A stretch of 64,000 nt of DNA from NCBI GenBank assembly GCA_009380075.1, contig WHSO01000003.1, positions 4,724-68,723 of the forward strand, given 5' to 3'. Below the pieces are notes generated by a model. It worked only from the letters and a program-made list of their open reading frames with translations. It did no database searches and was not told where the DNA came from. The DNA comes from Alphaproteobacteria bacterium (GTDB lineage: Bacteria > Pseudomonadota > Alphaproteobacteria > SMXQ01). Position numbers and translations under genes: made by a program. Below, in pieces: positions 1,210 to 10,949 of this stretch (its first letter is position 1; the number at the start of each line of letters is the position of its first letter).

Positions 1210-2370
1210 ATGCGAAACGGACTGAAAATTTTTGATGCCGATACACACGTCAGCCCTTCGGCGGAAGCGCTTCGTCCACACCTTTCGGCAAAGCTCCTGC
1301 AACTGGTTCCCGACCTGGAACAGCACCGACAGGAAGTGAAGGTCGGTTGGGCAGGCGAGCAGTTCCAGCCTCCTTATCGCCACCGATACCGCTTTGGCAA
1401 TCGCTCAGGCTGGAGCAAGAACAAACCGCGCCATCTCGGCGAGGCCGGCCCGCGGGAGAACGCTGAGCGGCATTTTCAGAAATTTATGGGCGTGACGTAT
1501 CCCAGCGAAGGCGGCGCCGATGACAATGCTGCCGCCCGGTTGAGGGACATGGACACGGAGGGTGTCGACGTCCACTTCCTTGTCAGTGTTGGCGGCGTTG
1601 GTCATCCCGATCCCGAGGTGGAAATGGAGTTCATTTGTGCCGAGCACCGCTATTTGAACGAATTCTGTGGTTCCGATCCAAGCCGGCTGAAATCCTGCCT
1701 TACCGTCACACCGCTGTTGATCGACGCCTCAGTCGCAGAAATTCGCCGCTGGGCGAAAGAACCCTGGGCAGTGGCGGTCCATCCGAACCTGCCGCTCGAC
1801 TATCCCCTTGATCACCCTGACCTGTATCCCATCTGGGAAGCGGCGCAGGAACATGGCTTATGTGTGATTCACCATAGCCTGTCCTGGGGCTACCCGGGAT
1901 ATCGTGACATGTGGGGGAACCCTTTTATCGGCAGATCGGCGAGCCACCCATGGGCGGCGATGCGGGCCGTCGCCTCTTTCATCGGCGGGGGGCTCATGGA
2001 CCGGTTTCCGGAAATCCGGTACGGCGTGCTCGAATCGGGTTTCGGCTGGCTGCCCTTCTGGGCGAATCGCATGAACGATCAAGCCATTTACGTTGGCTAT
2101 GTCGTTGAACTCCGTCATAAGTTGAGCGATTACCTGACAGGGGGCCGCTTTTTTGCATCCATCGAGCAGCATGAAGGTCCCCAGATGGCCAGGCACGTAA
2201 ACGAGTTTCTGGGAGATCACGTGCTGATGTTCGGTTCCGACTATCCGCACGCGGAGTCCCGCTTCCCCGAATCCGCGGACCGGACGTTGGCGTGGCAGAA
2301 CGTGATTGGCTCCGAAGCAATGAGGAAGATGATGTGGGATAATCCGGCACGATTCTTTGGCAAGCCATAA
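1210..2370 (+). CDS. Amidohydrolase family 2 metal-dependent hydrolase/decarboxylase
   Basis: DADTH, HH, LESGFGWLPFW and FGSDYPH motifs; ends WDNPARFF. ATG at 1210 follows a GAGAGG RBS. Confidence 0.85.
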   Translation: MRNGLKIFDADTHVSPSAEALRPHLSAKLLQLVPDLEQHRQEVKVGWAGEQFQPPYRHRYRFGNRSGWSKNKPRHLGEAGPRENAERHFQKFMGVTYPSEGGADDNAAARLRDMDTEGVDVHFLVSVGGVGHPDPEVEMEFICAEHRYLNEFCGSDPSRLKSCLTVTPLLIDASVAEIRRWAKEPWAVAVHPNLPLDYPLDHPDLYPIWEAAQEHGLCVIHHSLSWGYPGYRDMWGNPFIGRSASHPWAAMRAVASFIGGGLMDRFPEIRYGVLESGFGWLPFWANRMNDQAIYVGYVVELRHKLSDYLTGGRFFASIEQHEGPQMARHVNEFLGDHVLMFGSDYPHAESRFPESADRTLAWQNVIGSEAMRKMMWDNPARFFGKP

Positions 2371-7624: not shown

Positions 7625-8677
7625 ATGATACGCACCAAACACGTTCTGACCGCACTGACCGTGCTTGCGGCGGCAACCCTTCCGGTTGCACCGGGCACCG
7701 CACACGCCGCCAGCCCGTGGGAAGGCAAGTCCATGACCTTTGTCGTCGGCTTCGGTGTCGGTGGCAGCTACAACGCCTACAGCCGGCTGGTTGCGGGCCA
7801 TATCGGGCGGTTTCTTCCCGGGAACCCCACGGTCATCGTGCAGAACATGCCGGGCGCCGGCAGCGTGCGCGCCACCAACCATCTTTACGAGATCGCCCCC
7901 AAGGACGGCACTGTCATTGGCATGATCGACCAGGCGATCCAGGCGTTCGAGCTGATGGGGCGCAGCGGTCTCAAGGCCGAGTCAACGAAGTTCAACTGGA
8001 TCGGGCGGCTCATCTCCAACAGCGCCGTGCTTTTTGCGTGGCATTCCGCGCCCATCAACAAGATCGAGGACGCGCTGGAAAAGGAATTCATCGTTTCGGC
8101 TTCGGGTGCGGCGTCGCGCCTCAACTGGACGATCATGAACAAGGTCATCGGCACCAAGATCAAGATCATCACCGGCTACAAGGGCACCGGCGAGTCCCTG
8201 CTCGCGATGCAGCGCGGTGAAATCCACGGGCTCAGCCGCCCGTGGACGGCGCTCAAGGCGTCCCAGGGGGACTGGATCAAGGAAGGCAAGATCCGCCTCT
8301 TACTACAGACCGGCGCCGAAAAGAACGACGACCTGCAGAACGTGCCGCGCATGCTCGACCTCGCGAAGAATGAGGAGGACCGCAAGCTCCTCCGCTTCTT
8401 CGCCGCACCGTCGGAAATAGGCCGCTCGGTGGTCGCGCCTCCAGGCGTTCCCAAGGAGACGGTCGCACAATTGCGTGAGGCTTTCTGGAAGGCCATTCAC
8501 GATCCTCGTTTTGGTGCCGATCTGAAGAAGTCGAAGCTCGACCTCGAGCCGATGCGCGGCGATAAGCTGCAGGCCCTCGTGGAATCCGGCAAGGACGTCT
8601 CGCCTGCGATAATCGAACGGGCCAAGGCGCTTTCCGCGACACAGGCCAAGAAGAAGAAAAAGAAGAAGAGCGGCTAA
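7625..8677 (+). CDS. tctC: Bug/TctC family tripartite tricarboxylate transporter substrate-binding protein with poly-Lys tail
   Basis: Signal peptide; VGFGVGGSYNAYSRLVA, VIVQNMPGAGS, APKDGT, GYKGTGESLLAMQRGE, PPGVP. RBS GGAGGT before ATG 7625. Ends KKKKKKKSG. Confidence 0.88.
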   Translation: MIRTKHVLTALTVLAAATLPVAPGTAHAASPWEGKSMTFVVGFGVGGSYNAYSRLVAGHIGRFLPGNPTVIVQNMPGAGSVRATNHLYEIAPKDGTVIGMIDQAIQAFELMGRSGLKAESTKFNWIGRLISNSAVLFAWHSAPINKIEDALEKEFIVSASGAASRLNWTIMNKVIGTKIKIITGYKGTGESLLAMQRGEIHGLSRPWTALKASQGDWIKEGKIRLLLQTGAEKNDDLQNVPRMLDLAKNEEDRKLLRFFAAPSEIGRSVVAPPGVPKETVAQLREAFWKAIHDPRFGADLKKSKLDLEPMRGDKLQALVESGKDVSPAIIERAKALSATQAKKKKKKKSG

Positions 8678-8684
8678 CCCTTCG

Positions 8685-8945
8685 CTGCTGGCGCCGCCGG
8701 CGATTCCGGCGGGCCGCGCCGCTGCCCTGCGCACGGTCTCCACCACCCTGAAGAAGGTCGACAAGAAAGGCGCGGTGCTGTCCTTCGACGTCAAGGGAAA
8801 GGCCCAACGGGCACGCACCAGCAACGCCCGGACGGCGGTCACGGTCAAGGGTACCCCGGTGAAGCGGTCCGACCTCAAGGCCGGGATGAACTGCTCGATC
8901 ATCTATCAGGGGAGCGGGACCGAGGCGTCCAATGTCACCTGTTAG
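8685..8945 (+). CDS. Unlisted small basic beta-rich ORF (about 86 aa) lacking a canonical start; C-terminal Cys pair
   Basis: Read by hand: LLAPPAIPAGRAAALRTVSTTLKKVDKKGAVLSFDVKGKAQRARTSNARTAVTVKGTPVKRSDLKAGMNCSIIYQGSGTEASNVTC*. Strong G/C third-position bias like the neighbouring genes. Frame is open from 8613 with no ATG/GTG/TTG upstream of the domain. Confidence 0.6.
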   Translation: MLAPPAIPAGRAAALRTVSTTLKKVDKKGAVLSFDVKGKAQRARTSNARTAVTVKGTPVKRSDLKAGMNCSIIYQGSGTEASNVTC

Positions 8946-9020: not shown

Positions 9021-9467
9021 TCAGCACGCGTGAACGGCCTCGACCTTCACCCGTGTAATCCCGGCACGCACGAAATCCAAATCCCTCGCGGCTCGGTAAG
9101 AGACGTCAAGGAATCGCCCCTTGATGAAGGGGCCCCGGTCGTTCACGGTGAGGACCACGGATCGCCCGTTCCCGACGTTCGTGACCCGGATTCGGCTGCC
9201 GAAAGGCAACGTGCGATGGGCCGCGGTCAAGCCATGCATGTTGAACGTCTGCCCACTCGCCGTACGGCGTCCGTGATGTTCACGACCGTACCACGAGGCC
9301 GTGCCGGCTTCCTGATAGTGGCGGGCCTGCGTGCAGTTCAATGGTGCTTCCCTCGTGCCGTCATGTCGTGGATTGACCTGCGTGCAGGAGGCCAGAACAA
9401 ACGGCGCCAGCACCAGGGCAAGTCTCGCACGTAACCTTGAAGGCGGCATGGTCCGCGTGATCATCAT
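9021..9467 (-). CDS. rlpA: RlpA-family septal ring lytic transglycosylase lipoprotein (DPBB domain only, no SPOR)
   Basis: Lipobox LASC; GTASWYG...RTASGQTFNMHGLTAAHRTLPFGSRIRVTN...VNDRGPF...LDVSYRAA. Start at 9467/9449 rather than 9689. Confidence 0.9.
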   Translation of the reverse strand: MMITRTMPPSRLRARLALVLAPFVLASCTQVNPRHDGTREAPLNCTQARHYQEAGTASWYGREHHGRRTASGQTFNMHGLTAAHRTLPFGSRIRVTNVGNGRSVVLTVNDRGPFIKGRFLDVSYRAARDLDFVRAGITRVKVEAVHAC

Positions 9468-9645
9468 CGCACCTGAAAACTGCGTCACGGAACGTCCCGA
9501 AAAGCGTAATCCGGCCAAGCTTAATGGCTTGTTAAGGGACGTCCCCGGACGCCGACGGAGAGCACTAAAGGGAAGGACCTCCCGCTCCGATGGGCACATT
9601 CCAGGTAGGGCTGTCCTGTGGGACCTCGGGACACTGAGGCCGAAC

Positions 9646-10815
9646 TCATAGTCCGCAGCCGGTTGCAGCAACCGAACCGTCGGTGCCACCTCCGCCTTCC
9701 TTGTTCTGCCGCTCGGCGACGCCCGATGCGGCGGTATCTGTTCTCACGGCCGCCGCGACAAGTTCGCCGACCACGTCGGAGCGCAACGCGGTGTAGTAGT
9801 CATCGACGCGCGTGCGGGTGGTCGTCTGCGATGTTATGACGATCGTGAGTGAAAGCGACGGGACGACATAAAGGAATTGCCCGCCGTAGCCTCGCGCATA
9901 ATGGACGGGATGGCCACAGGCCTTGGCAATGAACCAGCCGTAGCCGTAGCCGTCACCTGAAAAGAACGACTCCGTATGTGGTGTCCAGGACGCGCGTACC
10001 CAGGCCTCGGACAGGACGCGCTTGCCCCGGAAGATTCCGCCGTTTCGGTACATCTCTCCAAAGCGCAGCAGGGCGCGGGGCGACAACAGCATATTGTTGC
10101 CGCCGAGATAGATTCCCTGGGGGTCGCGGTCCCAGGGGGGCAGGTCAAACCCGAGCGGTGCTGCCAGCCATGCCCGCGCGAGATCGAGGGTACTTCTCCC
10201 CGAAACCCGCGTCAGCACGGCCGAAAGGATATGGCTGTTGCCCGTCGAATACAGCATGCGTCCGCCGGGCTCATCGACAAACGGGCGTGACAGGGCGTAG
10301 CCGACCCAGTCCTTGCTGTTGACCCACCGCCCGTAGTTGGCCCCGGACGTCCGCTCCAGGCCCGACTGCATGGAAAGAAGATGGCCGATGGTCACCTCTT
10401 GAAGCCGTGGATCGGCGGCGTCGGCAACGGATTCACCCAGAAGGGAAACGATGGGCTGCTGCGGACCCTCGATAAGTCCACGGTCGATGGCGAGCCCGAC
10501 GAGGGCCGAAATGACCACCTTGGCGACCGACTTGACGTTGACGGAAACGTCGAGGCGGGGCCCGCGGAAACGGCGTTCAAGGTGAATTGTGCCGTGGCGC
10601 GCGACGATCAGCGAATGGAGCCGTGGCAACTCTCCGGCACGGCGCACGACACGCGCTATTGTCGCCTCGTCGAGACCTGGCCTGACGCTGCTTGCGTCGG
10701 CGGCTAGCGGTAAGGCATCCAGGGCGAGCGCTTTGTTCAACCCACAACCGCCGTTGGCGAATGCCAATGCAAATATGGTGTAACGTAGAAAACGTGAGAC
10801 GACCCCTGGCGCCAT
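9646..10815 (-). CDS. Serine hydrolase, beta-lactamase class C / NylB-like family, exported
   Basis: SxxK (SVAK), VTIGHLLSMQSGL, YSTGNS, YGYGW and ARGYGGQ motifs; N-terminal signal-like segment. Confidence 0.85.
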   Translation of the reverse strand: MAPGVVSRFLRYTIFALAFANGGCGLNKALALDALPLAADASSVRPGLDEATIARVVRRAGELPRLHSLIVARHGTIHLERRFRGPRLDVSVNVKSVAKVVISALVGLAIDRGLIEGPQQPIVSLLGESVADAADPRLQEVTIGHLLSMQSGLERTSGANYGRWVNSKDWVGYALSRPFVDEPGGRMLYSTGNSHILSAVLTRVSGRSTLDLARAWLAAPLGFDLPPWDRDPQGIYLGGNNMLLSPRALLRFGEMYRNGGIFRGKRVLSEAWVRASWTPHTESFFSGDGYGYGWFIAKACGHPVHYARGYGGQFLYVVPSLSLTIVITSQTTTRTRVDDYYTALRSDVVGELVAAAVRTDTAASGVAERQNKEGGGGTDGSVAATGCGL

Positions 10816-10949
10816 CGATACTCTTCCTTGACAGGTTTCCTTCTCTCTCACGGCCGCTCCTACTCTAGCCTGACACGGAACTAAGGAATGCCTGTCCGGG
10901 GGCAGGTGTCAACAGGCGCCTCGAAGGGTCCGCACCGTTATCCTCAATG

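Follow-up and report, generated by a model that had tools for sequence, protein, structure and literature searches.

Behind tctC1, a gene for a Bug/TctC solute-binding protein (SBP) in a 64,000-nucleotide (nt) stretch of the alphaproteobacterial contig WHSO01000003.1 (the window), lies an open reading frame (ORF) that has no start codon of its own. The gene tctC1 runs from ATG 7625 to TAA 8675-8677 and encodes 350 amino acids (aa) with an N-terminal signal peptide; residues 69-331 match positions 16-270 of the 274 in the Pfam TctC profile PF03401 (E=4.6e-16), and we thus regard it as a full-length member of the family. The frame shifted by +1 relative to tctC1 is open from 8613 to TAG 8943-8945 (110 codons), and its GC content at third codon positions (GC3) is 0.88, versus 0.57-0.58 in the other two frames. 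Its only ATG, GTG or TTG is GTG 8775, which lies inside a C-terminal domain (CTD) with a pair of cysteines. An earlier note, made from the letters of this DNA, had described a GC3-rich, start-less frame at 8613-8945; its coordinates, frame, purine tract and GC3 bias were accurate, as was the statement that no ATG, GTG or TTG precedes the domain. The ORF behind the tctC1 stop also stood, its given length of 86 codons did not, since we count about 89. The observation is real, though the original interpretation of the hidden frame mostly fails. With a probability of about 0.75, positions 8678-8945 are the remnant of a second Bug/TctC gene, tctC2, most likely decaying, and not a frameshift extension of TctC1.

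Evidence for a second gene came from a length-padded search, which recovered intact full-length relatives of tctC2 (P0004, 426 aa; P0005, 435 aa; P0006, 423 aa) and another relative, P0007, that is incomplete at a contig end. The four proteins match PF03401, and the layout of the tctC2 relatives is ..FAGRPLLAPPSIPTERAAALRAAFMAAMKDKALL.., followed by a linker and then by the CTD. P0004, which is annotated as a Bug family protein, is 87% identical to the downstream frame. The remnant itself is not a full-length family member and retains only the APP..ALR motif of the TctC body. Its LLAPPAIPAGRAAALRT region aligns with ..FAGRPLLAPPSIPTERAAALRAAF.. of P0004 and with paralogues, and LLAPPAIPAGRAAALR corresponds to residues 276-292 of P0004, which belong to the mature TctC body and not to a signal peptide. 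Thus, the string LLAPPAIPAGRAAA, once taken for a signal remnant, is actually the conserved internal TctC motif GRPLLAPPxIPxxRAAALR of the truncated second gene.

The surroundings of the intact gene indicate where the remnant came from. At the locus of P0004 (L055), the gene behind tctC2 is the RlpA-like gene, on the minus strand (..FLDVSYRAARELDFVRAGITRVK..), that also follows the remnant in the window, and the original 3' context of the remnant is fixed because the intact orthologue shares this neighbour. At the breakpoint the intact gene reads ..GCGGGGCGACCA to the left and CTGCTGGCGCCGCCG.. to the right, and homology with the window begins at 8685, with the breakpoint 1-7 nt after the tctC1 stop. 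The closest orthologues of tctC1 are 69-78% identical and come from four other species, three in the same genus (G006, G045, G002 and G005 taken together include one from another genus of the family). No CTD was found directly behind any of the four in any frame; a dienelactone hydrolase (DLH) gene adjoins instead. In the window's own genome, the 5' part of tctC2 (best match 49%) and an orthologue of the DLH gene (best match 42%) are both absent, which fits a deletion from just behind tctC1 into tctC2. The locus matches a pseudogene in that a longer homologue survives intact in a conserved genomic context, and the local copy is missing its 5' part and its start. Searching genome contigs with P0004 returned only distant TctC bodies without a CTD, from Hyphomicrobiales-type metagenome-assembled genomes (MAGs). 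Proteins of 131 aa of the P0028 type, which look truncated, were rejected as truncations and attributed to a contig-edge effect.

Sister strains, represented by the sediment metagenome loci L040-L049, preserve a longer piece of the gene. Their gene order is PrpD, OCD, TctC (350 aa), a 136-aa ORF (P0002/P0003) and RlpA on the minus strand. The 136-aa ORF starts with ATG and begins MAAMKDKALLEDAKK...; upstream of this ATG, the sister +1 frame reads ..AANPSLLAPPAIPxDRAAALRTAF-MAAMKDK.., and truncated forms of the ORF are present on 23 and 5 contigs. The tract of lysine codons at the end of tctC1, the tctC1 stop and the next 32 nt are identical in the window and five sister haplotypes (L040, L041 and L046 among them). 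An in-frame stretch of 207 nt (69 codons) that every sister strain has is missing from the window at 8735/8736, and the deletion is flanked by the 10-nt imperfect direct repeats CACGGCCTCC and CACCGTCTCC. It took out three TctC-derived helices, the last of the TctC body, together with both ATGs present in the sisters, so that the earlier suspicion of a lost start is literally true. The deletion is confined to the window lineage. Undeleted contigs occur in runs X1-X3, X5, X7-X9, X11 and X12, and the deleted junction was also found in run X5, on an independent 96-nt contig, beside the undeleted form. The nearest undeleted relatives, the contigs of X1/X3, do not align over 8712-8800, and an extra 22 nt (GCACGGTCTCCACCACCCTGAA) was reported in them at the same repeat (window ~8730-8752); this insertion, if real, breaks the frame. 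These events suggest that the short repeat is a slippage hot spot. The X1-X3 contigs also carry 8670 G>C.

These comparisons give the following history for the locus. The product of tctC2 consisted of a TctC body, a linker and a C-terminal domain of ~70 aa with a Cys pair and an OB-like fold. A deletion or rearrangement that begins just behind tctC1 and ends near codon 277 of tctC2 took the promoter, the signal peptide and ~275 codons; the 3' 155 codons that were left happen to lie in the frame shifted by +1 from that of tctC1. The sister strains still carry this piece as their 136-aa ORF, and in the window strain the further in-frame deletion produced the start-less frame of 17 codons plus the OB-like domain. 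The remnant in the window strain is probably decaying, and it probably yields no useful translation product. The features of the locus are collected below.

Features of the tctC1-tctC2 locus (positions in the window)
Feature	Positions	Strand	Remarks
tctC1 (Bug/TctC solute-binding protein)	7625..8677	+	complete; signal peptide; C-terminal poly-Lys tail ..AKKKKKKKSG, then stop
Poly-Lys codon tract (AAG)3 AAA (AAG)3	8648..8668	+	purine run AAGAAGAAGAAAAAGAAGAAG
Left breakpoint, tctC1 3' end joined to the middle of tctC2	8678..8684	+	homology to intact tctC2 begins at 8685
Residual 17 codons LLAPPAIPAGRAAALRT of the tctC2 TctC-like body	8685..8735	+	conserved APPxIP...ALR motif
Scar of the 207-nt deletion	8731..8741	+	junction 8735/8736; alignment with L040, L041 and L046
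Cys-pair domain, predicted OB-like	8736..8945	+	~54 paralogous copies; alignment A1; AlphaFold2 model
Sole canonical start codon of the frame (GTG)	8775..8777	+	56-aa product, without barrel strand 1
RlpA-like (DPBB) gene, convergent on the remnant	9021..9689	-	Pfam DPBB_1, E=3.8e-25

The domain that makes up most of the remnant is widespread in this organism. A six-frame search of its own genome (162 contigs, 3.54 Mb) found ~54 further copies of the ~70-aa domain, with E values down to 3e-17. Nearly all of them lie at the extreme C-terminus of open frames of 430-520 aa that encode TctC-like or SBP_bac_1/8-type (ABC-type) binding proteins (for example loci L002-L008), which bears out the fusions to TctC C-termini that the earlier note had mentioned; two copies stand alone and have a signal peptide. 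In the same family, genomes (G001-G024) have 5-53 copies each, and none were found in other families of the class. Among 1.84 billion representative proteins, a profile search yielded 743 clusters with the domain, in C-terminal, standalone and tandem architectures, the latter with up to 8-9 copies; P0012 and P0020 are examples of the standalone versions and 5-9x tandem arrays found elsewhere. No Pfam or NCBIfam model matched when the peptide and P0002 were searched. In alignment A1 of 53 paralogues, G44, G55, C58 and C74 never vary, and all four are retained in the window copy; the terminal Cys pair that had caught attention in the window is thus a property of the whole domain family. AlphaFold2 (AF2) models the domain as a six-stranded barrel with a predicted local distance difference test score (pLDDT) of 94. 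The nearest solved folds by Foldseek were OB-type folds (CusF, cold-shock proteins, RPA and the N-domains of aminoacyl-tRNA synthetases) and an S-layer self-assembly domain, at template-modelling (TM) scores of 0.5-0.67 and E values of 4e-3 or worse. By its sequence relationships, the domain is a genuine, conserved module that TctC paralogues carry at their C-termini, and the predicted fold is OB-like, with CusF and other OB folds as best matches, in agreement with what had been suggested at first sight.

The end of tctC1 is likewise of a common type in this genome. Its C-terminus reads ...ATQAKKKKKKKSG before the stop (also written ...ERAKALSATQAKKKKKKKSG), and the orthologues in the four other species end ..PKKKKKKKKKSGN, ..KRKRSKKKKAKN, ..GNKGKKKKKKKKN and ..KRKRGKKKKKKAAN, each with poly-Lys, 1-3 residues and a stop at the equivalent place; the tctC1 stop is genuine, as the earlier note had argued. 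In the own genome (G000), ~59 ORFs of 330-690 aa terminate in poly-Lys tails (KKKKKKKK plus 1-3 residues). These ORFs encode largely SBPs, examples in the window being 7625-8677 and an SBP gene ending at ~52626, and the tails are retained by orthologues in other species. The tctC1 stop and the AAG tract are therefore ordinary, since four orthologues end alike and ~59 proteins of the genome carry such tails: the tract is the coding sequence of a common C-terminal tail and not a specially evolved slippery site.

To estimate selection on the frame, substitutions were assigned to branches polarised with intact tctC2 outgroups, and they are given here as synonymous:nonsynonymous counts. The terminal branch of the window has 1:6, which departs from the purifying pattern (p=0.009), and the terminal branch of L040 has 2:3. 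Between the window and L040, the ORF shows 5:9 versus 76:31 in the neighbouring genes (Fisher p=0.014), and the recent branches pooled give 4:9. These youngest changes, together with the two indels, suggest that the frame is now decaying in the sublineage of the window.

Several observations weigh against a simple history of decay. Between L040 and L046, the ORF frame has 39 synonymous and 20 nonsynonymous changes, with a ratio of nonsynonymous to synonymous substitution rates (dN/dS) of 0.146, versus 1.5 and 2.3 in the other two forward frames. This is counted as equally low as the value of 0.108 between two intact tctC2 genes (L055-L056); the neighbouring genes OCD and tctC1 have 0.12 and 0.11. 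Both older lineages are enriched in synonymous changes relative to neutrality, the L046 branch with 16:6 (p=6e-6) and the stem of the window and L040 with 14:9 (p=4e-4). The 11 codons before the sister ATG have ~7:4 (p ~0.02-0.04), a bias that would fit translation entering from upstream. The stretch 8609-8709 (101 nt covering the tctC1 3' end, tract, stop and junction) is invariant in six haplotypes, with flanks that vary every ~10 nt. Moreover, the window deletion is in frame and spares all invariant CTD residues, including both Cys, and no intact tctC2 allele closer than 87% identity was found, which speaks against a young truncation. An antisense gene as the cause of the codon-position pattern was rejected, since all three reverse frames contain stops in the sister strains. 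At face value, the older signal means that the ORF kept a function after its truncation, perhaps even with translation entering from upstream.

However, the divergence between L040 and L046 is a mosaic, with a block of 0-4% that spans the 3' end of tctC1 and the junction and extends 32 nt further, followed by 10-18%. Such a mosaic is expected of a young truncation allele carried by recombination into diverged backgrounds, and the selection signal may then be historical: if the truncation is young, the substitutions in the ORF, including those before the ATG, accumulated while the gene was intact. The invariant stretch 8609-8709 coincides with the end of this low-divergence (recombination or sweep) block. 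Whether the sister ORF is still functional or merely carries the selection signature of its intact past we put at roughly even odds.

The alternative that survives best, although we consider it doubtful, is that the ORF is a living gene in the sisters, encoding a 136-aa protein of three TctC helices and the OB-like domain that was lost recently and only in the window strain. Translation would use the ATG of the ORF itself, or ribosomes would re-initiate after terminating on tctC1, whose stop lies 64 nt upstream. The low dN/dS and the synonymous enrichment of both lineages speak for such a gene, as do the stops in all antisense frames and the presence of truncated forms on 23 and 5 contigs with no closer intact allele found. 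However, neither sister ATG is preceded by a Shine-Dalgarno sequence, unlike the intact tctC2 genes, which have GGGGAGG. The protein would have no signal peptide, for a domain that in all other cases is periplasmic. In the AF2 model of the sister protein, the three helices reach a pLDDT of only ~70 and do not pack confidently on the barrel (predicted TM score, pTM, 0.50), and several radical replacements have occurred in the L040 lineage. The selection signal may, as said, predate the truncation. For the window itself, this alternative makes the same prediction as a decaying tctC2 remnant, namely a dead piece of gene.

Frameshifting into the +1 frame, programmed or fortuitous, appears unlikely. 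In this scenario, a slip of the tRNA-Lys in the P site, from AAA 8657-8659 to AAA 8658-8660 and perhaps aided by polybasic stalling, would produce a minor long isoform made of TctC1, the K-tail, RRRAANPSLLAPPAIPAGRAAALR and the OB-like domain; the domain would be exported via the TctC1 signal peptide, mimicking the ~54 natural SBP-CTD fusions. The tract does offer a perfect re-pairing site at AAA-A (8657-8660), the sole conceivable +1 slip site in it, and no canonical start precedes the domain. The invariance of 8609-8709 and the synonymous bias of the sister codons before the ATG are also in line with a shift, the window deletion is in frame and excises exactly the redundant TctC piece, and the Cys pair suggests a periplasmic location. 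The tryptic peptides AANPSLLAPPAIPAGR (window form) and AANPSLLAPPAIPADR (sister form) could come only from +1-frame translation that enters upstream of any start. Against this stands the layout, which is a deletion scar in a single species-level clade: G006, G045, G002 and G005 have the tctC1 tail without a +1 ORF behind it, the two-frame arrangement is not conserved across taxa, and ~59 genes bear such tails. The zero-frame A-site codon AAG is common and not "hungry", the +1 codons are rare AGA, and the stop-adjacent GGC UAA C is unable to re-pair (GGC to GCU). Stimulatory elements were also missing, with no Shine-Dalgarno-like sequence and no RNA structure at 8645-8745 above that of shuffled sequences (fold z=0.47). 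A conserved frameshift-stimulating hairpin was rejected, since the 3' arm of the lone hairpin (8693-8714) falls on the variable sites 8710-8713. Nor is there a site for transcriptional slippage, which takes a homopolymer of ~8-9 A or T; the longest run is A5 (8657-8661). Finally, the window branch looks neutral, the 22-nt insertion reported in X1/X3 would break the frame, and mosaic recombination accounts for both the conserved island and the pattern before the ATG. Thus, the programmed +1 recoding once proposed for this tract found no positive support, and the layout is explicable without it.

A related idea, to which we give equally little credence, is that the poly-Lys codons of tctC1 serve as a +1 shift site and that a small fraction of TctC1 is made with the OB-like domain captured from the destroyed neighbour, so that a new pair of short and long binding proteins arose from a deletion scar. 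Selection in the sisters would then have kept the pair, and the in-frame 207-nt deletion would have streamlined the version of the window strain; this, too, we find improbable.

A separate small protein in the window strain, started from CTG 8685/8688, ATT 8703 or the internal GTG 8775, is very unlikely. The frame is open and GC3-rich, and a weak AAAGG lies 4 nt before GTG 8775. However, such a protein would have no signal peptide, with LLAPPAIP.. being an internal TctC motif, the GTG product would lack barrel strand 1, neither CTG nor ATT has a Shine-Dalgarno sequence, and the recent substitutions look neutral. No plus-strand terminator or start signal was found, and none of the RNA runs contained this stretch. 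Last, a sequencing or assembly indel in the AAG tract that hides a single fused tctC-CTD gene, suspected initially (the genome is a 162-contig MAG), is refuted: tract, stop and offset are the same in the window and in at least four independent Joint Genome Institute (JGI) assemblies (L040-L049), no indel was present in the Logan contigs of 12 public runs, and the orthologues stop at the same place.

Other broken or truncated copies occur in this and other species of the family. In the own genome (contig C80, L054, 97000-101500), a second remnant, a 104-codon open frame at 1998-2309 on the minus strand, holds only the last two thirds of a CTD and lies between two intact tandem TctC-CTD genes. 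A 136-codon 5'-truncated TctC-CTD fragment lies behind an unrelated gene at 1561-1968 (minus strand) of L050 (G020:C107), and at 1559-1810 of L053 (G002:C1) an SBP-CTD gene has an in-frame stop after a stretch that seems frame-scrambled. The region to the right of the remnant also differs between strains: in the sister contig L044 (4819-6452), an integrase-like gene with a faint Phage_integrase match replaces the beta-lactamase-family gene beyond RlpA (window 9646-10851).

The element is thus of an ordinary type: at a deletion scar lies what remains of a truncated Bug/TctC gene with an unannotated OB-like CTD. Resolving a tempting recoding candidate into a scar and a gene fragment spares experimental effort, and it exposes a pitfall, in that a fragment can owe a dN/dS of 0.15 to its intact past when it belongs to a heavily recombining population. 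More interesting than the remnant itself are the Lys-rich, disulfide-type OB-like domain and the poly-lysine tails. In this uncultured alphaproteobacterial family of sediment and soil, well over a hundred periplasmic binding proteins per genome carry one or the other appendage (>50 CTD fusions and >50 poly-Lys tails per genome). Our literature search on binding proteins of tripartite tricarboxylate transporters (TTT) gave no mention of either, and no description of poly-lysine tails was found in papers on TTT or tripartite ATP-independent periplasmic (TRAP) binding proteins. Both appendages suggest that the binding proteins are tethered to a partner or an anionic surface; this idea is testable and, if true, would matter for how TTT and ABC receptors function in organisms of this kind.

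Compared with the Bug/TctC family (PF03401), the first 17 codons of the remnant (85 in the sisters) are homologous to the C-terminal APPGxP...ALR..F..mkD...GeE... region, but ~275 N-terminal codons including the signal peptide are missing, and many members in this bacterial family bear a poly-Lys tail or a Cys-pair OB-like domain outside the Pfam model. The locus resembles paralogue remnants in tandem gene-family arrays in its 5' truncation at a rearrangement scar with loss of the start codon, in the internal deletion between short direct repeats, in the neutral look of the newest substitutions and in the comparable remnants elsewhere in the same genome family. It differs from them in that the frame is still open and that a purifying signature is seen between the older haplotypes.

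The CTD shares with CusF and cold-shock-like OB barrels a predicted 5-6-stranded barrel of ~70 aa (TM 0.63-0.67 to 2vb2, 2qcp and 1zeq). In contrast, an identity of 10-15% amounts to no sequence similarity (Foldseek E at least 4e-3), and the domain studied here is Lys-rich, shows an invariant G, G, C...C pattern of its own and occurs in SBP fusions or tandem arrays. With +1 frameshifting of the prfB/RF2 type and sliding on poly-lysine or poly(A) sequences, the locus has in common a start-less +1 frame that overlaps the end of the upstream gene and a run of Lys codons with one AAA-A re-pairing site. It differs in that no slow or stop A-site codon stands at a shift-competent P-site codon, in that there are only five consecutive A and neither a Shine-Dalgarno-like nor a structural stimulator, and in that the arrangement is limited to one clade and is explained by deletion.

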